Virus record (IMG/VR): IMGVR_UViG_3300025767_000004 | Reading direction: 5' to 3' (one strand) | Length of the DNA: 64,000 nt | From: an uncultured virus (IMG/VR IMGVR_UViG_3300025767_000004) | Taxonomy: Duplodnaviria > Heunggongvirae > Uroviricota > Caudoviricetes | Position numbers and translations under genes: made by a program | Notes under the pieces: model-generated | Database searches by the model: none | What the model was told of the DNA's origin: nothing | The model's input: the letters and a program-made list of their open reading frames with translations, nothing else | Shown here: piece by piece, positions 815 through 42,600 of the stretch | How positions within the stretch are numbered: position 1 is the stretch's first letter | Layout of the letters: every line of letters begins with the position of its first letter

Positions 815-1870
815 TTACTTTATAAATGTAGTATTTGTTTTTAGTCTTTTCAAGCTCTCGATAAACATTTTTATCACAGATTCTACATCATCTTTATGTG
901 CCATCTCAACAGTTGTATGCATGTACTTTAATGGTGTTGCAACAATCGCAGTTGGTATACCACCATCAGCTAAGAAGAATCCCATAGTGTCGTTACCATA
1001 CGAACCAATCGTTAGTTGGTAAGGTATCTCATTTTCATCTCCAACTGTTCTGAATAACTCAATCAACTGTCTATGGTTTTGTGCGGTGTGTTCAATAGCG
1101 CAACCGTTACCACCAATAGTCTCACAGTCCTTCTTAACATCATACATCGGTGCCTTTGTGATATGACACACATCAGTTACCAATGCAACATCTGGTTTGA
1201 TATTATTAGCAATCATTCTCGCTCCGTACAATCCAACTTCCTCCTGTACTGAATTGACAACATACAAATCAAACGGTAACTTATCACCATTCTCTTTTAA
1301 TCTACGAGTAACCTCTGCGATGATGTAACCACCAATCTTATTATCCAATGCCTTTCCAACATAATAGTTACCCATCTCGTGTAGTCGGTCATCGAAGTTT
1401 ACAATGTTACCCACTTCAATACCCATTTCGATAACCTCATCCTTAGAACTCGCACCCACATCGATAAAGTTATTCTTCAATGATGGATTGTCCTCTTTGT
1501 CTTTTCTTACGTGAATCGCTGGCCAACCAAATACTCCCTTTAGTCTACCGTTCTTTCTCGTATGAATAACCACTGTTTTTGATGGGGCAATCTGATGGTC
1601 TGAACCACCGTGTCTAACCACATATACAAAACCGTCAGCATCAATGTGAGAAATCATCCATGAAATCTCATCACAATGTGCCTCAATAACAACTTTCTGT
1701 GCTCCTTCAATACCTGACTTTACAATACCATAAGCAGTACCATAGTTATCGTGATGAATCTCATCAACATACTCAGTTAAATAATCCGTCCACACCTTTT
1801 GTCCCTCACCTTCTTCGGCAACAGGAGAATACGCATTTAGGTAATCATATAAAAATTCCTTACTGTCCAT
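815..1870 (-). CDS. M42 family metallo-aminopeptidase (FrvX/TET-like)
   Basis: Motifs EAHCDEI, KALDNKIG, SVQEEVGLYGA, VTDV, YMHTTVE; start moved to MDSKEFL (1870). Confidence 0.9.
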   Translation of the reverse strand: MDSKEFLYDYLNAYSPVAEEGEGQKVWTDYLTEYVDEIHHDNYGTAYGIVKSGIEGAQKVVIEAHCDEISWMISHIDADGFVYVVRHGGSDHQIAPSKTVVIHTRKNGRLKGVFGWPAIHVRKDKEDNPSLKNNFIDVGASSKDEVIEMGIEVGNIVNFDDRLHEMGNYYVGKALDNKIGGYIIAEVTRRLKENGDKLPFDLYVVNSVQEEVGLYGARMIANNIKPDVALVTDVCHITKAPMYDVKKDCETIGGNGCAIEHTAQNHRQLIELFRTVGDENEIPYQLTIGSYGNDTMGFFLADGGIPTAIVATPLKYMHTTVEMAHKDDVESVIKMFIESLKRLKTNTTFIK

Positions 1871-25930: not shown

Positions 25931-26503
25931 ATGCGTTATCGTTACGACAAAAACTCATTAGAATTTAGTAAAGACAACAAAAGTATCTTTATCTGTATTT
26001 TAATCTCACTAACATTAGTCGTGGTATCTTACTTTGTTGGTAAGTATTCACATAAACCTTCAGAAATTGTTGAGTTGGAAAAAGAACTAATCATTATTAA
26101 AAACGAATGTCATACCACACCATTTTATAGAGACACTCTCATCAGTGAATTAAAAAGACTTAACGTTAACTTTCCACATATCGTATTAGCACAGTCAATC
26201 GTTGAAACAGGTCATTGGACCAGTACCATCTTTATTGAGAATAATAACTTATTTGGAATGAAAGAAGCCTCTATTAGAATTCACACTTCTATAGGGACTC
26301 AAAGAGGACACGCATATTACACCAATTGGAAAGAATCACTTTACGATTATTGTTTCTACCAAAGTAGATATCTAAGTAAGTTAAAAACTGAAGAAGAGTA
26401 TTACAATTATTTAAGTAGGTCATACGCAGAAGCCGATAACTATATATCATCACTTAAAAGGGTAATAAAAAAGGAAAAACTGAAGGAACTATTTAACGAC
26501 TAA
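25931..26503 (+). CDS. GH73 glucosaminidase/muramidase with N-terminal TM anchor
   Basis: LAQSIVETG, NNNLFGMK, YAEADNY; hydrophobic segment near residues 20-37. Confidence 0.85.
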   Translation: MRYRYDKNSLEFSKDNKSIFICILISLTLVVVSYFVGKYSHKPSEIVELEKELIIIKNECHTTPFYRDTLISELKRLNVNFPHIVLAQSIVETGHWTSTIFIENNNLFGMKEASIRIHTSIGTQRGHAYYTNWKESLYDYCFYQSRYLSKLKTEEEYYNYLSRSYAEADNYISSLKRVIKKEKLKELFND

Positions 26504-27579
26504 TAGTCGTGAATGTAATCGGTAAAGATTTCATTCATATCTTTTTCGAGAATAGTCGAATCTGCATAGTCAGGGTAACTAGCACTCAAAGAATCTTGGT
26601 AGGATAAATTATCACAATATTCTTCTAACACAGTTTCAAAACCACCGTAATACCAAAGGTCCTGACCCTCATCTATTATGTATTGGATAACATCAGTATA
26701 AATATTAGTAACGTCAATCTCCGTATTAACTATTGAATACGTATATTTATCCCCGTTACGATGATATCCAACACCTGTCTTACCAGTATCTACCTGAGTA
26801 TGTTTAGAACCAAAGAAATTCTCTATCGCTTCGTATACATTATTATACGCTTCGGATTCTAATGCCGACTCATAAGAGTAGTTGTAAATACGTCTTAGAT
26901 TATCCTTTAAACCCTCAAAGAAATCTATTCCTATTAATGCATCTGCAATTGTTGAGTTACTCATAAAAATCTCATCAAACGTTTCTTTAGTTAACTCACC
27001 GTCATCCTGTGAGATAACATCACTCAACATCTCATTGTCCCCATCGTAATTAACATACTCTCCGAAACCTTGCTCTAACATTAAATCTTTTAATTCTTTT
27101 AAATTAACGTCATTTAATGAATCAAGTATATCATCTTCAATACTAATATATTCTGAGAAGTCACTTCCTGAATAAAAATCACCTTCACCAACTAATATAT
27201 TTTCAATCCAATCAGTCCCCATATTACGGTCACTATAGAAAAATTTAGTCAACTCGTCAGCACTATTTAATACCATAATCACCTTATCGTTCCTAACCTC
27301 AATGTCAGGAAATCCAGGTGCCGTATGTTTTATTAATCTATGATTGTCTTTACTACTAATTAATGTTTGGAGAATCGTGTTGTATGTAACTTCATCGTAT
27401 GAGTCTTCATCTGATACCATATCAATCAGAAAACTATCTAATTGATTACGCATTATTAAATACTTATATAAATTTTCAGGGTCCCCTTCAAAAGTCTTTG
27501 CTATTATACTGAACTTATTTTCAGTAATAGGTACCACACCTTCTTTAATAATTTGTTTAATAGTCTCGATTAACCTCAT
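26500..27579 (-). CDS. Acidic hypothetical protein, possibly virion-internal
   Basis: MRLIETIKQIIKEG leader; TATTTATT at 27583-27590. Confidence 0.65.
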   Translation of the reverse strand: MRLIETIKQIIKEGVVPITENKFSIIAKTFEGDPENLYKYLIMRNQLDSFLIDMVSDEDSYDEVTYNTILQTLISSKDNHRLIKHTAPGFPDIEVRNDKVIMVLNSADELTKFFYSDRNMGTDWIENILVGEGDFYSGSDFSEYISIEDDILDSLNDVNLKELKDLMLEQGFGEYVNYDGDNEMLSDVISQDDGELTKETFDEIFMSNSTIADALIGIDFFEGLKDNLRRIYNYSYESALESEAYNNVYEAIENFFGSKHTQVDTGKTGVGYHRNGDKYTYSIVNTEIDVTNIYTDVIQYIIDEGQDLWYYGGFETVLEEYCDNLSYQDSLSASYPDYADSTILEKDMNEIFTDYIHDY

Positions 27580-27828: not shown

Positions 27829-30639
27829 TTAAGACATTTCATCTAAATCATCACTTAACTTACTCAACTTAGCGTGTTGTTCGTTAAACGCATTTACTAA
27901 TAACGATGTCATCTGTGGGTAATTAACCTTTAAGAATCCATCAGCACTTTCAACAACTAATTCAGGTAAAACTTTCTGTACTTCCTGTGCGATTACACCG
28001 ATATCCGTTGGAGTTTCCAACGACTTTGGTTTATAATCACCTTTCCATACGAACTCAACACCTCTAATGCTCATTGCTTTATCTAACGAATTAGAAATCA
28101 ATTCTACATTTTTCTTAGCTCTTATATCAGATGCGGGTCCTGTATAACCTCTAGGTCCTTTAGCTCCTGTATAACCTCTAGGTCCTTTAGGCGCTCCTAA
28201 TGGTACTATACCAGCAGGTCCTTTAATCCCTTTATAACCTTGTGGTCCTCTAACACCTTTTGTGGTATTACCGTAACCTTGCGGTCCTTGATTACCTCTA
28301 CTGTTACTCGCAGTACCTTGGTTACCAGGTTCACCTACATTTCCTGTTGGTCCTTGGTTACCTCTTGGTTGTGGGTCTCCTATTGAATTCCAATATTCCC
28401 TTCCATTTAACCCTCGGCTACCTTTTTTACCTTTAACACCTTTATTACCTTTAGGTCCTCCGTCACCAGGTCCTCCACGGTAGCTATCACCTTGTGGTCC
28501 TTGTGCACCAGTGGCTCCCATAGTTTTACCAGGTCTGTTACCTTTGATACCTTTGTAACCCTTAACACCTTTAGTAGTATTTGCATCCCCACCTTGTCCA
28601 CCAGGTCCTCTATTACCTTTAGTTCCGATATTACCTTTAGGTCCTTTTGGTGAGTATCCTGTTGGTCCTTGGTTACCTGTAGCACCTTTGTAACCTTTGT
28701 TACCTTTAGTACCTTTATCTCCAGGTCCTCCTTGTGGCCCTACTGGTCCTTGTGGTCCTACTGGTTGATATCCTTTAGGTCCTGCGTTTCCTTTAGGTCC
28801 TTTTCCACCAGCATTACCTTTAAGTAAGTTGGTCGTGTAACCTTTGTCCCCTAATGGTCCTACGTCTCCTCTATTACCTTTAGGTCCTTTGTTACCTTTA
28901 ACCCCTTGAGGTCTAGCACCAATATTACCTTTAAGTCCTACGTAACCTTTAACACCTTTGATACCTTTTCCACCTGTTGGTCCTTGTGGTCCCGTTGGTC
29001 CTACTGGTCCTTGTGGTCCTCCCGGTCCTTGTGGTCCCTGTACACCTTGTGGTTGATAACCTTTAGCACCTTGGTATCCTTGTGGTCCACGGTCTCCAGC
29101 GTTACCTTTGTAACCTTTGTTACCAGTAGCACCTTTATAACCTTTAACCCCTTTATATCCTTGAGGTCCTTGTGGTCCTTGTCCACCTCTGTTACCTTTG
29201 GTATTACCACCTTGTGGCCCTCTAGGTCCTTGCGGTCCTGTTGGTCCTCCCGGTCCTGTAATACCTTTATCACCAATAGGTCCTGTTGAACTATCACCAA
29301 CACCACCACGATATCCTTGAACACCCTGTGTTCCTCTGTAACCTTTATCACCACCAGGTCCTGTAATACCTTTTGCTGATGTGTTACCTTTGATACCCTT
29401 AAGTCCTTGGTAACCTTGTGGTCCCGTTGGTCCTTGTGGTCCTAAAATGTTAGAGACACCTTTTCTACCTTTTCCACCTGTTGGTCCTTGTGGTCCTGTA
29501 GCTACTGAAGGTCCTTTAAGACCTTTATAACCTTTAGGTCCAATTATACCTTTATAACCTTTAATGTTTCCACCTTGGTTACCCTGTGGTCCTCTGTATC
29601 CCTTAACACCTTGATTACCCTGTGGTCCTCTAGGTCCTTTTGGTCCTGTTCCTCCACGATAACCTTTGTCACCACCTTGACCTACAGGTCCTCTTGGTCC
29701 TTGCGGTCCTTGATATCCCTGAGCTCCTTGGGCTCCTTGTGCTGATGGAGTACCTACAACACCTTTATCACCTTGCGGTCCTTGGAACCCTTGAAGTCCT
29801 CTAGGTCCTTTAGTTGTGTTAGCATCACCCTGAATACCACGGTCACCATTAACACCTTTAAAACCTTTGATACCTTTGATACCTTTTTGTCCTACCGGTC
29901 CTGTAATACCTTTAGGTCCCTGTGGTGAAACACCTTGAGGTCCCTGATAACCAGTATTACCCTGTGGTCCTACGACACCTTTGTTACCTTTGATACCTTT
30001 AGCACCTTGGTCCCCTACAGGTCCTAAGTTACCTACAGACCCTATATTTCCTTGTGGTCCTCTGTATCCTTTTGGTCCGATATTACCTTTAGTCCCTTGC
30101 GGTCCTGTTGGTCCTACGACACCCTTCTCACCAATAATACCTTTAGTACCTTTGAATCCTTTGTCACCAGGTCCTCCTTGGACTCCCTTGTTACCTTTGT
30201 TTCCTTTGGTACCGATATTACCTTTAATACCTAATGGTCCTTTATCACCGTTTATACCAGCGTAACCTTTAGGTCCTGTCGGCCCTGTTGGTCCCGTTGG
30301 GCCAGTGGTACCTTTAGTACCCTTAGCTCCAACGTTACCTACATAACCTTTTATGTTAGTGATAGACCCAACCCAATTACCGTTTTCATCGATAACTATG
30401 TCAGTTAAACCTTCACCGTTTTTCATTATAATCTTACCGTCCACAAGTTTTAAACCTCCAGACATTTTTACCCCACCAGAACCAATTTCTAATGCTGATA
30501 TTTCTCCGTCGTTACCTACTGTTAGTGGAAGGTTTTCACCCATAGATACTTTCATATCCACAGTACCGTTATTTACAAACAATATCTCTGGAGATGATAA
30601 CCCTTCTCTATTTGGTGTTATTAATATATTCTTAGCCAT
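27829..30639 (-). CDS. Collagen-like fibre protein 1 with C-terminal peptidase S74 chaperone
   Basis: Gly-X-Y from about residue 98 to 836, then SDIRAKKN...IGVIAQEV. Confidence 0.9.
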   Translation of the reverse strand: MAKNILITPNREGLSSPEILFVNNGTVDMKVSMGENLPLTVGNDGEISALEIGSGGVKMSGGLKLVDGKIIMKNGEGLTDIVIDENGNWVGSITNIKGYVGNVGAKGTKGTTGPTGPTGPTGPKGYAGINGDKGPLGIKGNIGTKGNKGNKGVQGGPGDKGFKGTKGIIGEKGVVGPTGPQGTKGNIGPKGYRGPQGNIGSVGNLGPVGDQGAKGIKGNKGVVGPQGNTGYQGPQGVSPQGPKGITGPVGQKGIKGIKGFKGVNGDRGIQGDANTTKGPRGLQGFQGPQGDKGVVGTPSAQGAQGAQGYQGPQGPRGPVGQGGDKGYRGGTGPKGPRGPQGNQGVKGYRGPQGNQGGNIKGYKGIIGPKGYKGLKGPSVATGPQGPTGGKGRKGVSNILGPQGPTGPQGYQGLKGIKGNTSAKGITGPGGDKGYRGTQGVQGYRGGVGDSSTGPIGDKGITGPGGPTGPQGPRGPQGGNTKGNRGGQGPQGPQGYKGVKGYKGATGNKGYKGNAGDRGPQGYQGAKGYQPQGVQGPQGPGGPQGPVGPTGPQGPTGGKGIKGVKGYVGLKGNIGARPQGVKGNKGPKGNRGDVGPLGDKGYTTNLLKGNAGGKGPKGNAGPKGYQPVGPQGPVGPQGGPGDKGTKGNKGYKGATGNQGPTGYSPKGPKGNIGTKGNRGPGGQGGDANTTKGVKGYKGIKGNRPGKTMGATGAQGPQGDSYRGGPGDGGPKGNKGVKGKKGSRGLNGREYWNSIGDPQPRGNQGPTGNVGEPGNQGTASNSRGNQGPQGYGNTTKGVRGPQGYKGIKGPAGIVPLGAPKGPRGYTGAKGPRGYTGPASDIRAKKNVELISNSLDKAMSIRGVEFVWKGDYKPKSLETPTDIGVIAQEVQKVLPELVVESADGFLKVNYPQMTSLLVNAFNEQHAKLSKLSDDLDEMS

Positions 30640-30644
30640 ATCTA

Positions 30645-33600
30645 TTATTTATTGTTTAGTCTAAGTTTATTTATTTCTTCCTCTAATTTGTCAATATTAA
30701 TCTGTTCCGCTTTAATAGCTTCAATGATTAATGGTACAACTCTAGAGTACGACATTGTTAAGAAACCTAAAGAGTTCGTAGTAACCGATGCCGGTAATAC
30801 TTCCTTAGCGTTCTGTGCAACAAATCCGATATCATGTTTACCATAGTATCCAACTTCTGCCCATTCTTTCTCTAATGACTCTTGTGTCCAATCATACTCA
30901 ACAGGTACTAAGTCCATGATTTTATCTAAAGGATTTGATATTTCAACAATATCAGTCTTTAGTCTAACATCCGAAGATGATAATCCACCACCATCATTTT
31001 GTGGATAATCACCGCCTGGTCCTCTACACGTAGAAGCCTGAGACCATGAAATACCATTCCAGTAATATGTCGACCCGTTAGCAGAATAATATCCTGGTTC
31101 CGCTAATTGACCACCAAATGGGTCCAAATAGATAGGATTACTAAAACTGAAAGTACTAGACGTTTGGAAAATCTCTATATTCCTAGGAGAATTACAACTA
31201 GAAAAATAATCACGACCATTAGCAATTATGTGACTGTAGTAAGTAGTTTGTGCTGGACCTGAAAGTCCTGTATCACCACGATTACCTTTAGTACCAGTAG
31301 CTCCTCTATTACCTTTAAGTCCTACAGTTGCGTCAGCTCCAGCATTACCTTTTGGTCCTACCGCTCCTCTATAACCTTTTACTCCGTTAGCCCCTTTTGG
31401 TCCTCTAGGTCCTTTATAACCTTGAGTTCCTGCCGGACCTGTAGGTCCTTGATAACCTCTAGGTCCTTTAACACCTTTAGGTCCAATCGTTGGTGTGTAG
31501 TTACCTCTAGAACCAGGTCCACCTGGGCTACCTGCGTAACCTTGTATACCTCTGTTTCCTTTAGGTCCTTTTGCACCTTGATTTCCACTTGCGTATCCTT
31601 TGTCTCCTGTTGGTCCTTTGTCTCCACCGGCACCTGTAGGTCCACTAGCACCTTGATACCCTGTTGGTCCTCTACCACCGTTATAACCTTTAGCTCCTTT
31701 ATAACCTTTATCTCCTTGTGGTCCTGTTGGTCCTACATTACCTATGTTACCTTTAGTTGCGGTATTACCTCTTGGTCCTTTTGGTGATGGTCCTGTATAA
31801 CCTTTAGGTCCTTGGTCTCCACGGTATCCTTTAGGTCCTATGTTACCTTTGATACCTTTGTTACCTTTGGTTCCAGTATTACCTCTATCACCTTGTGCTC
31901 CTCTATTACCTTTAGTACCTACTGGTCCTTGATAATGTGGTCCTCTGTAACCTTTAACACCTTTATAACCTTTAGGTCCTCTGTTACCTTTGTAACCTTG
32001 AGGTCCTTGTGGGGCAGTACCACCTACAGGTCCTTGACCACCTTGGCCACCTCTAGGTCCTTGTGGTTGGTATCCTTTAACACCTTTGTTACCCTTATAA
32101 CCTTTGTTACCTTTGTAACCTTTATCACCTACTGGTCCTGTCGGTCCTTGCGGTCCTGTACCACCTCTAAGTCCTGTCGGTCCTCTGTTACCTTTATGAC
32201 CTTTCTGACCGATAACCCCTTTTGGGCTACTACCTTGTGGTCCTCTGTAACCTTGAGGTCCTCTATTACCTTTGTAACCTTTGTCTCCTACAGGTCCTTG
32301 TCCACCTATTGGTCCACCAGGTCCACCAGGTCCTACATTACCTTTGATACCTTTATTACCTTTGGTTCCAACGTAACCTTTAACACCTTTAGGTGCGATA
32401 TAACCTTTATCTCCTGTAGGTCCTCTATCACCCGTAATTCCCGTGTTACCACGATTACCTTTGTTACCTTTAAGTGCTGGTGTTTGATTACCCTGAGGTC
32501 CAACATCTCCTTGTGGTCCTATATAACCTTTAACACCTTTGTTACCTTTGGCTCCAGTATTACCGATATACCCTTGTGGTCCTTTAACACCTTTAGGTGC
32601 TACTAATCCCGGAGTATTTGGGTCGTCATTCTGAGGTAAACCTTTAGGTCCCTGTGGTCCTCTATAACCTTGTGGTCCTTGATTACCTCTGTCACCTGTT
32701 GGTCCTACATTACCTATGTTACCTGTAAGTCCTCTATCTCCAGTATTACCTATGTTACCTTTAAGTCCTTTACCACCGCCTGGTCCTGCAACACCTTTGT
32801 TACCTTTATTACCTTTGTAACCTTTGTCACCTCCTGGTCCTGTTGGTCCTTTTGGTCCTGTTGGTCCTTTTGGTGATGAACCGATACCCCCTTGGATACC
32901 TTTATCACCTACAGGTCCTCTGTTACCAATATTACCTTTTAAACCTACAGGTCCTTTTGGTTGATAACCTTTTGGTCCTTGACCTCCTCTGTTACCTTGG
33001 TTTCCTTGAACTCCTTTAAGTCCTTTCGCCCCAATGTTACCTTTAGTTCCTACAGGTCCTAAGTCACCAGTATATCCCTTAGCTCCGATGTTACCTTTGA
33101 TACCTTGCGGTCCTTGATACCCAACGTTACCCGTTATACCTTTGATTCCTTTATAACCCTGAGGTCCTTTTGGTCCGATTTCACCTTTTGGTCCTCTAGG
33201 CCCTACAGGTCCTAAGTCACCAACGTTACCCTTGATACCTTTAATTCCCTGAATACCTTTTGGTCCTTGCGGTCCATCGTTACCTCTATAACCTTTATCA
33301 CCAGGTGCTCCATTATCTGAAGTTTCACCCTGTGGTCCAACGTTACCTTGAATACCTTTGTTACCTTTAGGTCCCTTCTGACCTACTGGTCCTCTGTTAC
33401 CTACAGTACCTTTGATACCCTTTATTCCTTTTACTCCTTGATATCCTTGTGGACCCTTTAAACCTTGAGGTCCTTTAATATCACCTAAGTAAACACCGTT
33501 CTCATTAATGATTACGTTACCCTGAGAATCCTTCAAATCACCTTCAATAATAAGGTCACCTTGAATTACGAATCTCTCAGTACCTGAGGTTTTCATTCTT

Positions 33601-33764
33601 GCAACCTCAGAACCGTTTAACATAACAACTAAATCATTCGTAGATGCTTCAGTCACTAATGTGTATTCCGTACCACCATTATATAATTCAATATTTGGTG
33701 CTCCGTCGGCTTCTGCTCTATTAGGATAAATAATTACCCCTTTTGTTCCTTTTTCTAGTGCCAT
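30645..33764 (-). CDS. Collagen-like fibre protein 2 with extra tip domain and S74 chaperone
   Basis: Gly-X-Y about 98-838, ~92 aa Cys/aromatic domain, SDVRLKTD...IGFVAQ. Confidence 0.9.
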   Translation of the reverse strand: MALEKGTKGVIIYPNRAEADGAPNIELYNGGTEYTLVTEASTNDLVVMLNGSEVARMKTSGTERFVIQGDLIIEGDLKDSQGNVIINENGVYLGDIKGPQGLKGPQGYQGVKGIKGIKGTVGNRGPVGQKGPKGNKGIQGNVGPQGETSDNGAPGDKGYRGNDGPQGPKGIQGIKGIKGNVGDLGPVGPRGPKGEIGPKGPQGYKGIKGITGNVGYQGPQGIKGNIGAKGYTGDLGPVGTKGNIGAKGLKGVQGNQGNRGGQGPKGYQPKGPVGLKGNIGNRGPVGDKGIQGGIGSSPKGPTGPKGPTGPGGDKGYKGNKGNKGVAGPGGGKGLKGNIGNTGDRGLTGNIGNVGPTGDRGNQGPQGYRGPQGPKGLPQNDDPNTPGLVAPKGVKGPQGYIGNTGAKGNKGVKGYIGPQGDVGPQGNQTPALKGNKGNRGNTGITGDRGPTGDKGYIAPKGVKGYVGTKGNKGIKGNVGPGGPGGPIGGQGPVGDKGYKGNRGPQGYRGPQGSSPKGVIGQKGHKGNRGPTGLRGGTGPQGPTGPVGDKGYKGNKGYKGNKGVKGYQPQGPRGGQGGQGPVGGTAPQGPQGYKGNRGPKGYKGVKGYRGPHYQGPVGTKGNRGAQGDRGNTGTKGNKGIKGNIGPKGYRGDQGPKGYTGPSPKGPRGNTATKGNIGNVGPTGPQGDKGYKGAKGYNGGRGPTGYQGASGPTGAGGDKGPTGDKGYASGNQGAKGPKGNRGIQGYAGSPGGPGSRGNYTPTIGPKGVKGPRGYQGPTGPAGTQGYKGPRGPKGANGVKGYRGAVGPKGNAGADATVGLKGNRGATGTKGNRGDTGLSGPAQTTYYSHIIANGRDYFSSCNSPRNIEIFQTSSTFSFSNPIYLDPFGGQLAEPGYYSANGSTYYWNGISWSQASTCRGPGGDYPQNDGGGLSSSDVRLKTDIVEISNPLDKIMDLVPVEYDWTQESLEKEWAEVGYYGKHDIGFVAQNAKEVLPASVTTNSLGFLTMSYSRVVPLIIEAIKAEQINIDKLEEEINKLRLNNK

Positions 33765-36565
33765 TATTTATTGTTTTTTGATTTGATAATCTCAAGTTTA
33801 TTATTTAAATCCTGAACGATTTGTCTTTGTTCTCTTAAAGAAGCAATTAAAATCGATGTCATTTTTGCATAATTAACGATTACCGCCCCACCAGGAACTT
33901 CAGTCGTCAATTCAGGTAATACTTCCTTCACCTCTTGAGCGATGAAACCAGTATCTTTACCTTTCTGTTTAAGTATATTAAATTCAGAATCTTCAATCCA
34001 CTCAAAGTTTACCCCTCTTAACTTAGTGATTTTATCAATCGCCATTGTTAATTCTGTGATATTCTCTTTAAGTCTCTTATCCGATGGTGGTCCTTGTGAC
34101 CCTATAGGTCCTTTAGCTCCTTGATACCCTGTAGGACCTCTAAGACCTTGTGGTCCTGAACCTCCTGGTGAAGTTGCAGTAGCACCTACCGGTCCTCTGT
34201 TACCTTTAGTACCTACTGGTCCTCTAGGGCCTCCGCCACCTTCATTACCTCTATAACCTTTTGGTCCTAATTTACCTTTATTACCTTTATTACCTTTGGT
34301 ACCTCTGTTACCTTTAAGTCCTCCTGGGAAAGTAATCCCTAAGTTATCATTAGTTCCTGAATAACCTTTGTCACCTGTTGGTCCTGTTGGTCCTCTACCT
34401 CCAGTATTACCTCTGTAACCTTTTGGTGCGGTACCAGCGTTACCTTTAAATCCTTTAGCACCTTTGTAACCTTTATACCCTTGAGGTCCCGTTGGTCCTC
34501 CTGGTCCTCTCGGTCCTTTTGGTCCTGAACCTCCTCTAGGTCCTGCATTACCTTTTGGTCCTTTATTACCTTTGTAACCTTTTTCACCAGCGGCACTGTT
34601 AGCCCCTTTATTTCCTATGTTACCTTTAGTTCCTGTATCACCTTGTGGTCCTCTATCACCAATTCCACCTTTAGCGCCTCTACCACCTTGGTTTCCTTGT
34701 GCACCTTGGTTTCCTTGGCCTCCAGCACCTCCTTTATATCCTTTGTCACCGACAGGTCCTTGATATCCTTTATCTCCTTTTCCACCAACGATACCTGTAG
34801 TACCTCTAGACCCTTGTGGTCCTCTATCACCACCAGGTCCTGCGTTACCTTTAATACCTTTGTTTCCTGTGTAACCTTTGATACCTTTTGCACCTGTTGG
34901 TCCTGTTGGTCCCTGTGGTCCTGTTATACCTCTAGGCCCTTGTGGTCCTTGGTTTCCTTTAGCTCCAATATTTCCTTTAACACCTTTGTTACCTTTAATA
35001 CCTTTACCTCCAGTATTACCTTTAAGTCCAATATAACCTTTTGGTCCTGTATATCCTTTAGGTCCTTTATTACCTTGAGTACCTACCGGTCCTGTTGGAC
35101 CTCCTGGTCCTCTATTTCCTTTAACTCCAATGTTACCTTTAGGTCCTTTAATACCTTTGTTACCAACGTAACCCTTAACACCTTTATTACCAGGTCCTCC
35201 TTGTGGCCCTTGATAACCCTGAGCACCCTGTGGTCCTCTTGGTGAGTTACCCGTATAACCTTTAACACCTTTATTACCCTTGATACCTTTGTCACCAGGT
35301 CCCCCTTGTGGCCCTTGATAACCCTGTGCACCAGGTGAACCTACAGGTCCTATAACTCCTTTGTTACCTTTATTACCTGTATTACCAAGGTTACCCTGTG
35401 GTCCTTGAGTACCTACCGGTCCTTGAGCTCCTCTGTTACCTTTAGTTCCTGTTAAACCACCTGAACCGATTGGACCTAAGTCTCCTCCTCCATTTTGTGG
35501 TCCTCTTGGTCCTTTAGGTCCAAAGTTACCTTTAATACCTTTATAACCTTGCGGTCCTTGGATTCCTTTAATCCCTTTGTATCCTATAGGCCCTTGTGGT
35601 TGATATCCTTTATCTCCTTGTCCCCCTTGAGGTCCTTGATATCCGATAACACCTTTATTTCCTTTGATACCTTTAATACCTTTGTTACCTTTAAGTCCTT
35701 TAGCCGCTGAATAACCTTTGTCACCCGTCGTACCTTTAGTACCTTTGTAACCTTTATCTCCTTGTGGTCCAAAGTTACCTCTGTAACCCTTAAGTCCAGT
35801 ATCCCCTCTGTCTCCAGTTGGTCCTGTTGGTCCCTGTGGTCCTTGCGGTCCTTGTTGACCTTGTGGTCCAACATTACCTGTTGCACCTTTATTACCTTTA
35901 ATACCCTTAGCTCCTCTGTTTCCTGTCGGTCCCTGTGGTCCTAATGGTCCGGTAATTCCTTTTGGAGAAAGTCCTTTTTGTCCTTGTTCTCCTCTGTTTC
36001 CTTTTATCCCTATAGGTCCCTGATTACCTACGTAACCTTTGTTTCCTTTAAGTCCTTGTTGTCCTTGTGGTCCTTGACCTCCTTGAGGTCCTATTGGACC
36101 GATTGGGCCTTGTTGTCCTTGGGCACCAATTGCTCCTTTTTGAGCAGTTGGTCCTACTATCCCTTCTGGACCTTTAGCACCTTGTGGGCCGATTACCCCT
36201 CTGGAACCAATGTATCCTTTCAAACCTTTTTGTCCTTGATTACCTTGAGCTCCCTGAGCTCCTGTTGGTCCTGTGTTTCCTTTTCTACCCTTGTCTCCAA
36301 TAAAATTAGAGGTATCACCTACGTAGTCACTTTCGATGAATGAGTCTTGTTCTTTGTTCTTAATTAAACCTGTTTGAAGGTTTTGGTTCTTTACTGTGGC
36401 AGTACCCTGAGCGTCAAATTCCATAAGTGTTGTTCCACCAGACTTGAAGATAAGAGAACCACCGGGGGTTAACCCGATGGTAATCTCTTCTACTCCATGT
36501 GTGATAACAATACTTGGATTACTTGACCCCGTAATATTCGGTGTGATTTTAATGTTCTTAGCCAT
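33764..36565 (-). CDS. Collagen-like fibre protein 3 with S74 chaperone
   Basis: Gly-X-Y about 90-827, SDKRLKEN...GFIAQEV; TAATG coupling to the next gene. Confidence 0.9.
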   Translation of the reverse strand: MAKNIKITPNITGSSNPSIVITHGVEEITIGLTPGGSLIFKSGGTTLMEFDAQGTATVKNQNLQTGLIKNKEQDSFIESDYVGDTSNFIGDKGRKGNTGPTGAQGAQGNQGQKGLKGYIGSRGVIGPQGAKGPEGIVGPTAQKGAIGAQGQQGPIGPIGPQGGQGPQGQQGLKGNKGYVGNQGPIGIKGNRGEQGQKGLSPKGITGPLGPQGPTGNRGAKGIKGNKGATGNVGPQGQQGPQGPQGPTGPTGDRGDTGLKGYRGNFGPQGDKGYKGTKGTTGDKGYSAAKGLKGNKGIKGIKGNKGVIGYQGPQGGQGDKGYQPQGPIGYKGIKGIQGPQGYKGIKGNFGPKGPRGPQNGGGDLGPIGSGGLTGTKGNRGAQGPVGTQGPQGNLGNTGNKGNKGVIGPVGSPGAQGYQGPQGGPGDKGIKGNKGVKGYTGNSPRGPQGAQGYQGPQGGPGNKGVKGYVGNKGIKGPKGNIGVKGNRGPGGPTGPVGTQGNKGPKGYTGPKGYIGLKGNTGGKGIKGNKGVKGNIGAKGNQGPQGPRGITGPQGPTGPTGAKGIKGYTGNKGIKGNAGPGGDRGPQGSRGTTGIVGGKGDKGYQGPVGDKGYKGGAGGQGNQGAQGNQGGRGAKGGIGDRGPQGDTGTKGNIGNKGANSAAGEKGYKGNKGPKGNAGPRGGSGPKGPRGPGGPTGPQGYKGYKGAKGFKGNAGTAPKGYRGNTGGRGPTGPTGDKGYSGTNDNLGITFPGGLKGNRGTKGNKGNKGKLGPKGYRGNEGGGGPRGPVGTKGNRGPVGATATSPGGSGPQGLRGPTGYQGAKGPIGSQGPPSDKRLKENITELTMAIDKITKLRGVNFEWIEDSEFNILKQKGKDTGFIAQEVKEVLPELTTEVPGGAVIVNYAKMTSILIASLREQRQIVQDLNNKLEIIKSKNNK

Positions 36566-36614
36566 TACAAAGAATCAATTTAATTTAGTTTATTATTATT
36601 ACAATTATTCATTA

Positions 36615-36622
36615 TATAAATA
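36615..36622 (-). promoter_or_regulatory. Putative late promoter TATTTATA for the collagen operon
   Basis: tataaata on +, 50 nt upstream of the 36565 ATG. Confidence 0.55.
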
Positions 36623-39600
36623 TTACGCTGAAAATTCAACTTTCAATTTGTATAAATCTTTTCTTTCAGCGTGTACGATGTAGTAAGCATTTACTTCACC
36701 TTCCGCAGAAACTTCAACCTTATTGTCAGCGACTGAAGAAACATAGTGTTGTGTTGGTTTACCGAACGGTGTTAATTGAACCGTGATAGTGTCCTCGTCA
36801 ACAAGACCAGTCCAATAATCAGGTAATTCAATTACTCCGTCACCCGTAACTTTACCTCTTACATAAACTCCGTGTTCTGGTCCCTCTAAGTTACCATACT
36901 GAAGTTTCATATTTGGTTTAGTTGGGTGGTCAATTAAGAACGATTTACTCTGTGCTCTTAACTCACCCATAATCTCAACATCTTGGTTAATCATTAATGC
37001 TCCACCAATATCTGTTAATCTATTTTGACCAACAAATACATTAGTTGCCACAACATGAGTTGCAGTTACATCATTAAACCTTACGTTATCGGTTGTTCTT
37101 AGATTTTGGTTCATTAAGTGAACTTCAGTTGCTCCTTGACCCGTATTAACAGTACTAAACGTTACCGCTGAGTTTGTTTTTACGTGTTGGTTCATTGTGT
37201 CCGCGTAACCATTATCTGTAAACCTACCATCTAAATCAATATTGATATCAGATAAAGAACCTGACCTTCCTATTGTTAATACCCCGTTTGCGGTATTGAA
37301 AGATGCTCCGTCAACGTAGTTGTTGTTATCTACAGTATCAACTAAGTATCTACCATCTAAATCGATTGTTAAATCTGATAAAGAACCTGTTCTACCGATA
37401 GTTAATTGACCATTAGTTGTATTGAATGCCACTGAATCTGCGTAGTTATCAGTATCCGTGTCAATAGCAAATCCTGAAACCGCCACACTATCACCATCTG
37501 ACTTAGTCAGTGTTAATGTTTGTGTTCCTGAATTGTATGTACCACCTGTTACTGTAACATCCGTCGTTAATGACGATAAGTTAACATTGTAAGATTCATT
37601 TGTACCACCAACTGTTAATGTTGTACCGTTAAGTGATGCTCCAGCTAAACCGTTTACATCTTCAATTTCAATAGATAACTGACCGTCAGACGCGATTCTC
37701 GCAGTCTCTTCAGCCGCTATTCTATTTGTTAATGAAGTGTCAGCGGTTCCTCTAACAGACTCTTCATTACCTACCCTAGTGTGTAATGAAGTTACTTCTC
37801 CATTTGTTACACCTATCTCAGTAGACAATCCTGTTGAGATTGTACCTACTCTCGTATGTAATGAATTATCTTTTACTAATCTCGTAGACTCTTCTTTAGA
37901 AATTCTCACTTCTAATGAACCGTCGGCAGAACCTGCAGAACCTTCTACGTTATTAATTCTCGAGTGTAACTGTACAATATCAGCATCTGTAGTATCAATC
38001 TCAGTAGATAATGCTGACGATACTTGTGCGAATCTATTATGTAATGATGTTTCACCCGCACTATATGCGTTTGATACATTCACTACGTTATTAGCGATTG
38101 AATTATCTTTCACTAATCTCGTAGACTCTTCTTTAGAAATTCTAGTATGTAATGAAGTTACTTCACCATTTGTTGTACCAATTTCGTTACCGATTCTAGT
38201 ATTTAATGAATTTACCTCACCATTTGTAGTATTAATTTCTGAAGATAAAGCTGCAGATACATTACCTAATCCTGTAGATACTGCTCCTAATCCACCTTCA
38301 ATAACATCAACTCTTTCGTTGATTGACGTATCGTCATAACCTGATTGCTCAATGTTCTGTACTCTAACGTTTAATGCGTTAATTTCAGTGTCTGTAGTGT
38401 TAATCTCGTCGAATAAATCTTTAGAAACTTCTCCGATAAGACCTATAACATCGTCAATCGCATCTTCTCTATTACCTTCCTCGTTAGCGATTCTTGTAGT
38501 TAATGAAGTATCAGCCGACGCTCTAACACCAGCCTCAGTACCTACTGCTGAAGATACATTTCCTACCTTAGTAGTTAATGAGTCATCTCCTGCTTTGATA
38601 GCCACAGAAACTGCTACAGATGTAGCGTATGGATTAAGTGCTGAAGTTAATTCTCCACTCGTAGTGAACGTTCCTAAATTAACAGAAACAACCCCACCTT
38701 TTACTCTATTTAATTTTAATACTTGATTAGTTAACGATGCTCCCGATACATAATCTTCGTTATCGATAGCGTAATCAATTTTAGTATTTAACGATAAGTC
38801 ACCAGCAATTCTTGCCGTAGCTTCATCACCTACTTCACTAGCCACCTGAGACGATACATCTGATGATGTTGCGTATGGTGCTAATGCCGCAGTTACTTCA
38901 CTTGCAGTTTGGTATTGACCTAAGTTAACCGATACGTTTCCGTTCTGTCTCGTTAATGTTAATACGTCACCTGTGATAGATGCTCCTGTGATAAAGTTAT
39001 CAGTATCTGTATCATCTTTGAATTGAGATAAGTCAACTGAAACAACACCACCAAGTGCTCTTGTTAATTCAAGTACGTCTCCGTCCATAGAAGCAGAAGA
39101 TACATAATCTTCACTTCCAATTCTTGAAGAAGCTTCCGCACTAATCTGAGCCGCTAATGCCGCGTCCTGTGCGTCAACATATGATGTGTTCGCTTTCGGT
39201 GCAATTGCTGAAGCTAATTCTCCTGATGTTACAAAACCTGCTAACGATACCGATAATGGTGCTAAACCTTGTCTCGATAAGATTAAATCTTGTCCTGACA
39301 TTGCCGCTCCTGTGATAAAGTTATCACCATCAACATCAACGTAGAAGTCAGATACCACTACTGTGTAACCATCAGACTTAGTTAATGTTAATTCACCCGT
39401 TGCTGAGTCGTAAGAACCTGAAGATACGTTTACGTCAGTCGCTAATGAACTTAAATCAACCGTGTAAGATTCTTCAGAACCTGAAACTGTTAATACGTTC
39501 GCTGCGAATGATGCTCCGTCTAATTCATTATGTGATGCAATATCACCGTCCATACTATCAAGTCTTGCAGTGATTGAAGCATCCTGTGCGTCAACATATA

Positions 39601-42600
39601 CTGTATTCGCTTTCGGTGCGATTGCCGTACCTACATACGATTCAGTTGCGTAACCCGCGATTGCTGAATTGATTTGTGACGTTACTTCAGAAGCCGTTTG
39701 GTACTGACCTAAGTCTACCGTTACGTCTCCGTTTTGTCTTGATAAAGTTAATGTATCACCTGAGATAGATGCTCCTGTTACGAAGTTATCCGTATCTGTG
39801 TCATCTTTAAATTGTGATAAGTCAACTGATACTAAACCACCCTTAGCTCTCGTAAGTTCTAAAGTGTCTCCGTCCATAGTTGCAGATACTACGAAGTCTT
39901 CTGACTCGATTCTACCACTTACTTCCGCAGAAATAGCAGATTCTAATGACGCGTCAGCCGCAATTCTTGCAGTCTCTTCGTTTGTTAAACCTGACTCAGT
40001 TCCACCAACTCTAATGTTAATTGATGTATCATCATATGCTGAAGCTTCAACATTGTTCACTCTCGTATGTAATGAAGTAACTTCATCATTCGTAGTTGTG
40101 ATTTCAGCTCCTAAAGCAGTTGATACACCGTTTATTTTTGTGTCTAATGATAAATCACCAGCACTTCTTGCTGAACTCTCATCTCCAATTTTAGTTGTTA
40201 ATGAACCTACCTCAACACCTGTTGTTGCAATTTCACTCGATAAATCAGAAGCTACGTCCGCAATTTTATTTGATAAAGATAAATCAGCAGTTGAATAAGC
40301 AGTACCTACAGTGTTAAACCTGGTATTGATTGAACCTACTTCAATATCTGTTGTGCTAATCTCATTTGATAAATCACCTGAAACAGATGCGATTACAAGA
40401 CCTAAAGAATTATCTTTAGATACTCTTACACCTTCTTCTGTTGAAACTCTCGTAGTTAATGAGTTAACATCTATATTTGTTTGTGCGATTTCAGTAGATA
40501 AATTAGCTTCAACAACATCAACTCTATCGTTTAATTGTCCTTCCGCTACAACTCTATCTGAAACCTCCGTTGAAATCTTACCGTCTAATACAACGTCTGC
40601 AGATATTCTGTCAGCAATTTCAGCGTCTATTTTATTATCGATTACTGTGTCATCGTATGCTCCTTGTTCGATATTACCTAAACGTGTATCGATAGAAGTA
40701 ACTTCACCGTCAACTAAATCTTCAGCTAATGATACTCTCGTAGTTAATGAACCTGATTTACTCTCTTCAGCAGTTAATCTTGTTTTAATACCATTAACTT
40801 CACCATCTAATAATGAATCTTTAGCTAATCTCGTTGAAGCTTCACTAACAACCGCATTACTTACAGAAGTAACAACACCATTAGTGTTTGTTATCTTAGT
40901 ATTTAATGAACTATCAGCAGTCGCTCTGTTAACCTCCTCAGATGAAACTCTGTTGTGAAGTGAAACGTCTTTTGCCGTTAATGAAGTATCAGCATCTTCT
41001 CTAGCACCTTCTTCAACACCAACTCTACTATTTAATGCAGTGATTTCACCACCTGTAGTGTTGATTTCTGAAGCTAACGCCGTTGAGATGTTACCAATCT
41101 TATTACTTAATGAACCGTCAGCTAAAACTCTTGATGATGCTTCGTTAGAAATCTCAGAATCTAAACTATCTTCAACACCACTAACTCTAATGTTAATTGA
41201 TGTATCACTGTAAGCCGCATTGTCTAAAGAAACAACAGAAGATAATCTTACTGATTCTTCAGCCGCAATTCTATTAGTTAATGTGTCATCAGCAGTTTCT
41301 CTGTTAGCTTGTTCTAATGATAATGAATCCCCTAATTGAGCGATTTCTGTATCTATTGAAATATCAGCAGAAACTCTATCAGCAACTTCATCAGAAATTA
41401 AGACTCCGTTTGCAATATCACCTTGTGTTCTGTAAACTTCTTCGTTAGAAATTCTCTCACCAATCGATGCTTGGTTTGTTAAGATACTTGAAATATCACC
41501 ATCATTATTTTCTAATTCAGTCTGTAACTCTTTTAACGTATCGTATGCTTCACCAGCACCGTTAACTACACCGTCAATCGCATCTGCAATCGCAGCCTCT
41601 CTAACAGACGCTTCAATACTTACTTTAGAATCTATTTTAGAATCTAACGTGTTTAAAGAACCACTAACTTCAACTAATCTATCATCAACTGATTCTACTC
41701 CGTCTTCTACGTTACTTACTCTAGTTACGATTGATGATGTATCACCACCTGTCGCAGCTTCTAAAGAGTCAATTCTTGAATCTAATTCATTGTCAGCAGC
41801 AATTCTACTACCTTCCTCTGAAGAAATCTGACCTTCTAAATCTTCAATAGATAAGTTAGTCTCTGATAAGTTGTCACCAATTACAGTTGCCAATGATTGG
41901 TCAGCTGCGAATCTTAATGAACCTTGTGCTGAAATTTCAATAGATAATTGGTTGTCTTTTGAATCTGTATAAGACTCTAAATCACCAATCTTAGTAGCTA
42001 ATGATGCATCAGCCGATTCTAATGTTGAAACCTCAGTATCAATTTTAGTGTTTAATGTATTATCACCTAAAGTTCTAGCGTTTACTTCGTTTGTTAATTG
42101 ACCACCTAATAATGTGATATCGTTTGATAACGTACCAACTTCAGAATCAATCTTAGAATCTAAAGAATCGTCAGCAACTACTCTTGTTGATGCTTCACCA
42201 ACAATTTTAGTATCTAATGATGAATCTCCAGTTAATGATGTAGTAATCGCAGAGTTTAATTTAGCCGTTAATGATTCATCAGCAGTTGATAAATCAGAAG
42301 AAATTAAACCATCAACTAATGTTAATGATAAATCTTTAGCCGCTCTTAATGATTCTTCATCTGAAACTCTCGTCTCTAAAGATGCTGAGAAATCTTCTGA
42401 ATCCCCAACTCTTTCGTTGATACTTGAATCGTTATATGCCGCAGCTTCTAACTCACTAATTTTAGTTTCTAATGAACCATCAGCAGTAACTCTTAATGCT
42501 GACTCCTCACCAATCTTAGTCTCTAATGAATCATCACCGTCAACTCTTAATGCTGATTCTACACTAATCTTACTATCTAAAGTATCGTCAGCGTCAACTC

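Follow-up and report, generated by a model that had tools for sequence, protein, structure and literature searches.

Three tandem collagen-like genes of an uncultured phage with rods of matched length and no common glycine register

The 64,000-nucleotide stretch of DNA analyzed here (the window) contains three tandem genes, A, B, and C, whose products share an architecture of N-terminal head, long Gly-X-Y rod, and C-terminal S74 chaperone (Table 1). The rods are locked in length, both in the window and in related phages, the S74 domains belong to three ancient classes (alpha, beta, and gamma), and the three chains have no common Gly register. Since their lengths are near equal in every related phage, the three rods must function as a matched set, and they most likely form three separate triple helices rather than a mixed one. 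The explanation that we prefer, with about an even chance of being right, is that they are three homotrimeric rods of ∼211 nm, whose common length reflects a side-by-side arrangement or a shared anchorage.

Table 1. Features of the trio and of neighboring genes in the window.
Feature	Position	Strand	Residues	Length	Remarks
Gene A (alpha class)	33764-36565	minus		933 aa	
Gene A head	36299-36565		1-89		
Gene A Gly-X-Y rod	34085-36298		90-827	738 aa	235 triplets, 10 interruptions
Gene A S74 chaperone	33767-34084		828-933		begins S-D-K-R-L-K
Gene B (beta class)	30645-33764	minus		1039 aa	
Gene B head	33474-33764		1-97		
Gene B rod	31251-33473		98-838	741 aa	228 triplets, 14 interruptions
Gene B distal domain	30975-31250		839-930	92 aa	non-collagen, between rod and S74
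Gene B S74	30648-30974		931-1039		begins S-D-V-R-L-K
Gene C (gamma class)	27829-30639	minus		936 aa	
Gene C head	30349-30639		1-97		
Gene C rod	28132-30348		98-836	739 aa	222 triplets, 21 interruptions
Gene C S74	27832-28131		837-936		begins S-D-I-R-A-K
359-aa protein	26500-27579	minus		359 aa	no known family; directly downstream of trio
2250-aa protein	36623-43375	minus		2250 aa	repetitive, fibre-like; directly upstream of trio
464-aa protein	58432-59826	minus		464 aa	collagen glycosyltransferase homologue; LH3/PLOD3 GT and accessory domains
481-aa protein	60151-61596	minus		481 aa	weak leucine-rich-repeat matches; beside glycosyltransferase

The trio is located in the fibre gene block of the phage. 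All three chains contain long runs with Gly at every third residue, and A, B, and C match the Pfam Collagen family (PF01391) with 280, 279, and 226 bits (E 3.8e-85, 7.4e-85, and 3.4e-68, respectively), above the curated cut-off of 27.2 bits; triple helix formation is predicted for these rods. An independent map of the Gly-X-Y repeats gave exactly the spans that a preliminary description of the sequence had proposed, and the C-terminal S74 domain that it assigned to each chain was recovered as Pfam Peptidase_S74 (PF13884; curated cut-off 22 bits) with 61.1, 50.4, and 57.8 bits in A, B, and C (E 1.2e-16, 2.7e-13, and 1.3e-15). The tight gene coupling described there can be read directly in the junctions, which are a TAATG overlap (...AAATAATGGCA) and a 5-nt gap (TAA-TAGAT-ATG), and this coupling suggests equal stoichiometry of the three chains. 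The triplet order indeed differs among the genes: X/Y likeness is no higher on the main diagonal than off it, and the paralogous rods of the window have no colinear similarity. Lysine occupies one third of the Y positions in the trio rods and the three chains are strongly basic, with a net charge of +72 to +84 each. Megablast of the window DNA found no close relative among cultured phages, and tblastn of gene C and the 2250-aa neighbor against cultured phages returned only short domain or collagen matches.

As had been noticed, the heads of A, B, and C are homologous; they have nevertheless diverged, and 16 of 105 alignment columns are invariant. AlphaFold2 gave a beta-rich head model (pLDDT 77.7), and the distal domain of gene B was modeled with a pLDDT of 66.8. 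Foldseek found no match to either model in the PDB at E <= 0.001; contractile-injection spikes were dropped as a structural likeness, their top matches being weak (E 0.04, rmsd 10 Å). In Pfam nothing matched the distal domain even at an E threshold of 1, and when the gene B tail was used in a word-indexed protein search the 15 matches all fell on the S74 half, with no relative of the distal domain among them. In the alpha and gamma chains of the window there is no such domain and the S-D-x-R-x-K motif starts immediately after the last triplet. A distal domain never occurs on more than one chain of a trio, and 8 of the 12 complete trios carry a single one; it is absent from every chain in the relatives L020, L037, L044, L062, and L074.

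The motif at the start of the S74 domains reads SDKRLK, SDVRLK, and SDIRAK, and its S, D, and K are invariant in nine aligned sequences. The Lys stands five residues after the Ser, a spacing that agrees with that of the catalytic pair Ser1264/Lys1269 reported for the S74 domain of T5 pb1 (PMC4690869), and the gene C domain matches a long tail fibre distal subunit in the PDB (6f45, E 1.6e-6). Homotrimerisation and self-cleavage are predicted for the S74 domains of the trio. A phylogenetic tree divides these domains into three clades, each with a single sequence from any one genome (IQ-TREE ultrafast bootstrap 100/92/87). Because the tree of the heads has poor resolution and contradicts the S74 tree in part, the ortholog classes were defined on S74. 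When the relatives L035 and G002 are compared, head types and S74 classes appear recombined, with one of each still kept. Judging from the sequences, the triplication is ancient, heads and S74 domains having become distinct before the split into length classes and remained so, and with three ancient classes present once per genome the rod lengths must have changed together many times.

The relatives were collected with a degenerate DNA pattern for the start of the genes. A complete trio was found in 12 contigs (the window and 11 further contigs of uncultured phages), four more contain two complete genes, and the third gene is incomplete in several metagenome loci; in all, roughly 15 orthologs of each class were obtained. 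Across phages the rods range from 212-226 to 1153-1163 residues, about six-fold; within the complete trios they differ by 3-28 residues, and in the four two-gene contigs by 1-5 residues. In a permutation test over the six length classes, 1 in 518,400 arrangements was as tight as the observed one, and the pairwise correlations were at least 0.9998. The agreement within three residues reported for the window (738/741/739) is, judging by these relatives, far beyond chance. Furthermore, the lengths are matched in 12 of 12 complete trios and in the four two-gene contigs, which strongly supports selection for equal length, the premise shared by the two readings offered in the preliminary description (an ABC heterotrimer or a bundle of homotrimers). 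Between the window and L020, orthologous rods share 55-57% of their residues, with net differences of −1, +1, and −2 residues and no gap over the first 545-575 residues, and the interruption positions are retained chain by chain in five genomes. The lock has a tightness of 0.4-4%, with a within-trio difference of 6% in the shortest class, and it is not absolute: the L044 rods measure 740/768/754 residues, and an L081 beta gene lacks 23 residues but is otherwise identical to that of L062. A giant-virus contig (L001) that came up in the locus search with gene B is unrelated, its tandem collagens of 129, 117, and 188 aa being unmatched in length and lacking S74. In the literature searched we found no description of three paralogous rods length-locked over a six-fold range, nor of chain-specific interruption maps that tolerate almost no indel.

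In each of the 12 complete trios three different chains have predicted triple-helical rods matched in length, as a heterotrimer would require, but in the window neither the Gly register nor the interruptions are matched between chains. In a rigid ABC alignment the Gly phases were compatible over 0.27 of the rods, compared with a mean of 0.30 in shuffles, and 153 of 200 shuffles reached the observed value; the compatibility was at most 0.43 in any trio. Banded phase alignment gave z values of 0.15-2.2 (with individual values of 1.0, 2.2, and 1.5). Where one chain is interrupted, the other two mostly have unbroken Gly-X-Y. The earlier caveat that the first interruptions are out of register was broadly right, except that for 5-6 of the 10 interruptions in chain A both other chains have an interruption no more than 8-10 residues away (post hoc p ∼0.01). 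These coarse three-way coincidences are found near rod positions 200, 355, 627, and 655, and at a tolerance of 8 residues there are 5 of 10, where 1.6 would be expected (post hoc p 0.012).

In the relatives with periodic rods, the long segments without interruptions succeed one another along the axis from rod to rod, in steps of one third of a period and in the same cyclic order, which is gamma 63, beta 109, alpha 155, gamma 204, and so on in L085 (period 141) and alpha 152, gamma 198, beta 252, alpha 295, and so on in G002/G003. Stagger and order are thus kept in two distant clades. If these rods were combined in one helix, the longest stretch regular in all three chains would be ∼9-21 residues. 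The one-third-period stagger fits three staggered rods and not a single helix. Of the two readings offered initially, what they had in common (selection for equal length) has stood, whereas the heterotrimer has gained no support, because Gly phases and interruptions agree no better than in shuffled controls and in the periodic relatives the patterns of the chains are shifted against each other by a third of the period.

We propose that the trio represents the alpha3, beta3, and gamma3 collagen-like rods of one large uncultured phage. The beta-rich N-terminal head of ∼90 aa would be the anchor on the virion, and the rod of 738-741 residues would extend ∼211 nm at 0.286 nm per residue. Each S74 domain would trimerise its own chain type, nucleate the helix from the C-terminus, and then cut itself at the Ser of S-D-x-R-x-K, after which alpha and gamma would end as bare collagen and beta would retain its 92-aa distal domain. 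The single common length and the residue-precise internal maps would be explained by the rods acting as a set, either alongside one another in axial register or with their ends sharing an anchorage. The different triple helices may even pack in register into a three-rod rope, with their stiff segments displaced from rod to rod by a third of the super-repeat; this stagger could also have been inherited instead of selected.

Several observations do not sit easily with three homotrimers and would be more natural in a single alpha-beta-gamma helix, which we nevertheless consider doubtful. In such a molecule a hetero-assembling S74 would nucleate C-terminal zipping, the heads would meet at the N-terminus and thereby impose equal length, the helix would tolerate unmatched interruptions, and the beta distal domain would be a single asymmetric tip. 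It explains the length lock in all relatives directly, when homotrimers need the additional assumption of bundling or common anchoring to account for a lock of 0.4-4%. It also agrees with the strict 1:1:1 presence of the S74 classes, with the absence of further collagen genes from the relative G002, which is 99% complete, with the gene junctions, with the near-zero net indels among orthologs, and with the coarse coincidences of interruptions in the window. A tip on at most one chain suits it better than homotrimers, which would leave alpha3 and gamma3 as bare rods, and so does the reshuffling in L035 that leaves one head type and one S74 class of each kind. Moreover, the motif KG[DE], which provides the salt bridges for self-pairing in homotrimers and has been reported to be over-represented in viral collagens (PMC11923368), is depleted in the chains of the window (1, 1, and 0 observed versus 5.1, 6.2, and 5.3 expected). 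However, a mixed helix has to reconcile these points with a Gly-phase agreement no better than shuffles, with interruptions that mostly face regular triplets, and with the L085 and G002/G003 patterns, which are as far out of step as possible. In natural collagen heterotrimers the interruptions of the chains are aligned. In addition, all chains of the trio are strongly basic and so offer no charge complementarity, lengths within a trio differ by up to 28 residues, and we saw no S74 heterotrimer in the literature searched. If it exists, the mixed helix would be the first collagen heterotrimer outside animals.

Two other explanations were considered. Three independent homotrimeric fibres without lengthwise contact could be set to one length by an outside ruler, such as a span or reach on the virion or a fixed-length tail, and we regard this as unlikely. 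Length conservation of each chain among orthologs needs just a per-fibre constraint, the differences of up to 28 residues and of 6% in the shortest class would be tolerated more easily, and the three distinct head types could correspond to three attachment sites. But an outside ruler does not account for the missing 3-residue indels in the first 545-575 rod residues between the window and L020, nor for the conservation, across two distant clades, of the cyclic order and of a stagger of one third of a period; a precision of 0.4% should be unnecessary for flexible rods that contain 10-21 interruptions, and no partner acting as ruler was identified. Equal lengths could also be a by-product of concerted evolution through gene conversion between paralogs, without selection on length, which is very improbable. 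In the G002/G003/L083 clade, the paralogous rods do have higher DNA identity (71-74%) than orthologs (68-70%), and derived local motifs are common to paralogs of one genome. Against this, the best paralog alignments are 40-100 residues out of register, no paralog tract above 77% DNA identity was seen, and the S74 and head domains remained distinct since before the length classes split. As the sole cause, gene conversion was rejected for the window, where rods without colinear similarity are matched within 3 residues.

The genes around the trio are partly conserved. The 359-aa protein has homologues at the same position in eight related loci from seven contigs (tblastn synteny), with 37-41% identity in the six window-like contigs (L020/L069, L034, L037, L042, L044/L071, and L062/L064) and 26% in L085; as a query for related loci it found nothing. 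The last ∼120 residues of the 2250-aa protein share 57% identity with a 'putative tail fiber-like protein' of a Flavobacterium phage. The 464-aa protein is a putative collagen glycosyltransferase of the LH3/PLOD type: it matches Pfam GT_PLOD (E 6.7e-68) and has an accessory domain, with homology to LH3 residues 14-493 and to R699, and in the PDB it matches human LH3 (6fxk, E 3.4e-54, query residues 3-463) and R699 (9dyt, E 5.2e-48). In L006, L008, L030, and L085 a homologue is encoded 1-8 kb away from the trio, and in L030, L085, and L087 homologues of the adjacent 481-aa protein (35-39% identity) lie just upstream of it. No lysyl hydroxylase or 2OG oxygenase was found within the window, and a small 2OG-Fe(II) oxygenase adjoins the trio only in G002/G003. 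The rods would probably be glycosylated by this linked LH3/R699-like enzyme, which suggests that collagen glycosylation exists in bacteriophages too, beyond animals and mimivirus. Mimivirus likewise combines collagen-like genes and an LH3-type glycosyltransferase (R699, with reported glucosyltransferase activity; PMC9546862, PMC12279948) in one virus. However, it is a giant virus and not a bacteriophage, its system also includes the L230 hydroxylase/glucosyltransferase, whereas no lysyl hydroxylase domain was found in the window, and we found no S74 chaperones or length lock described in the mimivirus literature searched.

The trio offers a natural system for how the length and register of collagen are measured and maintained, and it can reveal how three similar collagen chains are sorted in one cell, into homotrimers or a heterotrimer. 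Collagen design, in which it is difficult to select chains and to control their stagger (PMC8968730), would learn from either outcome.

Collagen-like phage fibres with S74 chaperones are already known. The solved S74 fibres (the T5 pb1 L-shaped fibre, K1F endosialidase, and S16 long tail fibre gp37; PDB 6f45), described as single-gene homotrimers (PMC4690869), have in common with the trio the C-terminal S74 and the conserved Ser/Lys pair at the domain start, and the trio genes are also in a fibre block. Unlike them, the trio places the chaperone right after the collagen rod in alpha and gamma, and not after a beta-helix or knob, and presents three ancient S74 classes at 1:1:1 with length-locked rods. 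Prokaryotic and phage collagens (Scl1/2, BclA, the EHEC prophage collagens, and mycobacteriophage minor tail proteins) resemble the trio in their Gly-X-Y repeats, the lack of an obvious hydroxyproline system, and their presumed trimeric rods. Their repeat number varies freely between strains, whereas the trio keeps one length in three paralogs with almost no net indel among orthologs; its rods are also 3-10 times longer and depleted in KG[DE]. Prokaryotic collagen-like proteins have been described as homotrimers of one gene (PMC8968730), and those of phages are annotated as tail fibres in phage records (PMC3368898). Finally, the animal heterotrimeric collagens and C1q share with the trio three paralogous chains, neighboring genes, matched collagen length, and a C-terminal trimer-nucleating domain, which is removed in procollagen. 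C1q in particular is encoded by three tandem genes, A, C, and B, with equal collagen stalks. The trio departs from these animal proteins in its unmatched interruptions and Gly phase, and its nucleator would be S74 instead of gC1q or a C-propeptide.

The three tandem collagen genes of the window (A, B and C) are real open reading frames, all with Pfam Collagen and Peptidase_S74 matches well over the curated cut-offs. An independent map of their Gly-X-Y regions (the rods) gave exactly the spans and lengths of the preliminary description, which had reported three rods matched to within 3 residues, and the tight coupling that it had claimed is also seen, the junctions being a TAATG overlap and a 5-nt gap. 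Nothing separates the last triplet from the start motif of S74 (S-D-x-R-x-K) in A and C, and in B a 92-aa non-collagen domain lies between the rod and S74. The Ser of this motif and the Lys five residues on are the counterparts of Ser1264 and Lys1269, given as the catalytic pair in the description of T5 pb1 (PMC4690869). The N-terminal heads, previously considered similar, are homologous but far diverged from one another. The rods have a composition common to all three, with Lys at about one third of the Y positions (78/235, 76/228 and 69/222 in A, B and C), and net charges of the chains are +84, +82 and +72. Colinear similarity among the rods was not found on the main diagonal, where X/Y identity and banded alignment scores are at background, in agreement with the differing triplet order noted before.

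Coordinates of the features in the window and in related loci (L-numbers)
Feature	Location	Strand	Remarks
Gene A	window 33764-36565	-	933 aa; rod residues 90-827, 235 triplets, 10 interruptions
Gene B	window 30645-33764	-	1039 aa; rod residues 98-838, 228 triplets, 14 interruptions
Gene C	window 27829-30639	-	936 aa; rod residues 98-836, 222 triplets, 21 interruptions
2250-aa fibre-like protein	window 36623-43375	-	C-terminal ~120 residues 57% identical to Flavobacterium phage tail fibre-like protein
838-aa and 711-aa proteins	window 44956-47472, 48496-50631	-	upstream of the 2250-aa protein
464-aa two-domain LH3/PLOD3-like glycosyltransferase homologue	window 58432-59826	-	matches human LH3 (PLOD3) and R699
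481-aa LRR-like protein	window 60151-61596	-	weak leucine-rich-repeat matches; adjoins glycosyltransferase
A/T-rich stretches before the three starts	window 36566-36640, 33765-33785, 30640-30665		
Super-repeat rods	L085 1754-10030; L012 4630-17678; L013 1549-13405		two distant clades
GT17 and 2OG-Fe(II) oxygenase genes	L012 467-1198, 2308-3777; L013 13397-14947; L100; L101		beside trio
CBM_4_9-like insert, beta rod	L012 16749-17240	-	G002-like phages
165-aa insert, second gene's rod	L033 7491-12236	+	protein residues 386-550; in L033/L040/L045
Beta genes compared	L081 1324-4188; L062 7065-9998		
G001 trio	L014 1-12412		
G001 receptor and synthetase-like genes	L006 11833-16252		

A three-head profile run against 1.84 billion representatives returned 12 proteins, mostly short A-like, B-like or C-like head fragments. 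A degenerate DNA pattern, designed on the start that the heads share, matched 10 stretches among viral contigs, of which 3 are collagen genes, and 86 in metagenome contigs, where long collagen ORFs were present in 37 of the 80 loci with DNA. For the rod lengths, the S74 start was placed by an HMM from nine sequences and inserted globular domains were subtracted when they had 25 aa or more; the rod boundaries of L030 beta and L089 beta were set by eye. The length match first claimed for the window was found again in the complete trios and two-gene contigs, with no counter-examples among them. Additionally, the beta rod of L033/L040 has some 1406-1415 residues, and the truncated alpha gene there still gives at least 1367. 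When each of the 6 length classes was represented by one trio and the beta and gamma columns were permuted exhaustively, 1 of 518,400 arrangements was as tight as the observed one, the mean within-trio range being 7.8 residues against a permuted mean of 488. The length match of the trio is a conserved, selected property of this phage gene family.

Rod lengths (residues) in complete trios and two-gene contigs
Genome or locus	Alpha	Beta	Gamma	Remarks
Window	738	741	739	
L020	737	742	737	
L037	735	749	748	
L044	740	768	754	
L062	741	762	756	L074, a different contig, has identical values
L085	686	685	690	
L030	862	869	864	
L056	226	213	212	
L087	226	216	212	
G002	1159	1163	1153	
G003	1023	1026	1018	
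L035				two complete genes, 1037/1042
L083				two complete genes, 1034/1037
L048				two complete genes, 1152/1154
L089				two complete genes, 1155/1156

The lock is not absolute, as seen in L044 and in L081, whose beta rod is short. This rod is 100% identical to that of L062 but for a 23-residue deletion (739 vs 762 aa), which may be natural variation in length or a fault of the assembly in the repeats. Insert-bearing rods match in length only once the insert is subtracted; in the G002-like phages it is a CBM_4_9-like carbohydrate-binding domain of 164-167 aa (E 4.5e-7). G001, a related phage contig, is not included in the length table, because its collagen genes look frameshifted or broken: one reads as 1427 + 256 aa, another has 986 aa and lacks S74, and the third is truncated where the contig ends.

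In a tree built from 39 S74 domains there are three clades, alpha, beta and gamma (A, B and C of the window, respectively), each with exactly one gene per complete-trio genome (IQ-TREE ultrafast bootstrap 100, 92 and 87; FastTree agrees). According to this tree the triplication is old, and it follows from the one member per clade in each complete trio that rod length has shifted in concert, in long-separate genes, many times. Head type and S74 class are not always coupled (L035 is unlike G002 in this), and one of each is still kept; in the 99%-complete G002, every Pfam Collagen match lies inside the trio. Beta is the chain with the distal domain (about 80-98 aa). This domain has homologues in the different length classes, is rich in Cys in most relatives, and has shrunk to 5-14 residues in L020, L037, L044 and L062 (and L074, with the values of L062). 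AlphaFold2 gave a beta-rich head model (28-sequence alignment, pLDDT 77.7) and a moderate distal-domain model (15-sequence alignment, pLDDT 66.8), and Foldseek found no match to either in the PDB at E ≤ 0.001.

The constraint on length is tight. The rods of the window and L020 are 55-57% identical, with net length differences of -1, +1 and -2 residues; the first 545-575 residues align without gaps, and in the last ~190 the small indels cancel out in each chain. In contrast, the alignment of the 2250-aa neighbour with its L044 homologue, 1757 residues long, has about 190 columns with gaps. Interruption positions are conserved chain by chain in five genomes (for example 52, 112, 198, 234 and 353 in alpha; 52, 172, 201, 281 and 360 in beta; 142-145, 177-180, 202-205, 262-265 and 282-285 in gamma). 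What sets G002 apart from G003 in all three genes is one block of about 136 residues, which lies 316-460 residues from the rod C-end in each; its exact placement is uncertain because the rods are repetitive.

Our favoured reading, to which we give about an even chance, is that each chain of the trio would form a homotrimeric rod of its own and that the three rods would function as a set locked in length, probably lying side by side. The preliminary description had also offered a single mixed alpha-beta-gamma (ABC) heterotrimer, which explains the length lock without further assumptions and is favoured by a distal domain on at most one chain, by head and S74 modules that are swappable between chains, and by the depletion of the self-pairing K-G-D/E motif, found 1, 1 and 0 times in the window rods (5.1, 6.2 and 5.3 expected, a five- to eight-fold depletion) and 34 times over nine chains (about 82 expected). 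Charge pairing between unlike chains cannot be the selector, because all three are strongly basic. A canonical ABC helix requires a constant Gly phase relation between chains. However, when interruptions and Gly phases were mapped in register, phase agreement was no better than in shuffles. Pairwise agreement near zero shift, anchored at the S74 junction, was 0.2-0.5 against a background of 0.33 (sd 0.07-0.13), and a banded phase alignment allowing local slips did no better than shuffled segment orders (z of 1.0, 2.2 and 1.5 for the window pairs, where 29, 4 and 14 of 150 shuffles scored at least as high; z of 0.15-1.7 in G002 and G003). The fraction of axial positions with all three phases mutually compatible was 0.27 in the window (shuffle mean 0.30; 153/200 shuffles reach the observed value) and at most 0.43 in any trio. 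The earlier caveat of out-of-register interruptions holds broadly, but coarse three-way coincidences do exist in the window: 5 of the 10 alpha interruptions are within 8 residues of one in both other chains (1.6 expected; p 0.012 with 20,000 shuffles, in a test chosen post hoc), several of the sites (about 200, 355, 627 and 655) being conserved in orthologs. Relics of an ancestral gene explain these coincidences as well as co-assembly does.

Furthermore, the picture is clearer in L085, G002 and G003, whose rods are built from a regular super-repeat of 132-143 residues. In L085 (period 141, autocorrelation 0.92-0.97) the three chains carry the same pattern shifted 46 residues each, with long uninterrupted segments along the axis at gamma 63, beta 109, alpha 155, gamma 204, beta 250, alpha 296 and so on; in G002/G003 (period about 132-143) the order is alpha 152, gamma 198, beta 252, alpha 295. 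The shift is about one third of the period, and the cyclic order is the same in the two distant clades. With this stagger, hardly any stretch of a single mixed helix would be regular in all its chains, and in three separate, axially registered triple helices the stiff segments would be spread evenly. This argument applies to the window by homology only, because its own rods have no super-repeat of this kind. Altogether, we regard one mixed helix as rather unlikely. Independent fibres whose length is set by an outside ruler are also an unlikely explanation, and pure concerted evolution a very improbable one.

The window also encodes a 464-aa glycosyltransferase homologue that aligns with residues 14-493 of human LH3 (E 3.4e-54, PDB) and with mimivirus R699 (E 5.2e-48, PDB), described as a collagen galactosylhydroxylysyl glucosyltransferase (PMC9546862, PMC12279948). 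In L006, L008, L030 and L085, homologues of it are found at a distance of 1-8 kb from the trio. In G001, a TonB-dependent receptor gene (Plug and beta-barrel) and a glutamine-synthetase-like gene lie between the trio and the glycosyltransferase. The adjoining 481-aa LRR-like protein may be part of the collagen module, because its homologues (35-39% identity) are located immediately upstream of the trio in L030, L085 and L087; in L030 and L085 they sit with the glycosyltransferase homologue. The G002/G003 trio is flanked by a small 2OG-Fe(II) oxygenase (PF13640, 36 bits) and by a GT17 glycosyltransferase, and for neither of them was a homologue found in the window. Because Lys occupies one third of the Y positions, it is reasonable to suppose that the rods are glycosylated.

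The window appears to belong to a large uncultured phage, for which no close cultured relative was found. Nearly all its genes are on the minus strand, and PHROG and Pfam scans revealed tail-fibre-like proteins, an endolysin, thymidylate synthase, DNA methylases, PPK2 and other auxiliary genes. The trio is flanked by the 2250-aa repetitive fibre-like protein on one side and by a conserved 359-aa protein that belongs to no known family on the other, an order kept in window-like relatives; in L085 the 359-aa homologue likewise follows the trio. Internal repeats of the 2250-aa protein also occur in the 838-aa and 711-aa proteins, seen as many overlapping tblastn alignments in relatives. No Shine-Dalgarno-like purine run was seen in the A/T-rich stretches before the three starts, which would fit some host groups such as Bacteroidota.

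In the literature searched, we found no description of such length-locked trios. The K-G-D/E motif, which forms self-pairing salt bridges, is described as strikingly frequent in viral collagen-like proteins (PMC11923368); in contrast to the enrichment reported there, it is rarer than expected in the rods of the window.
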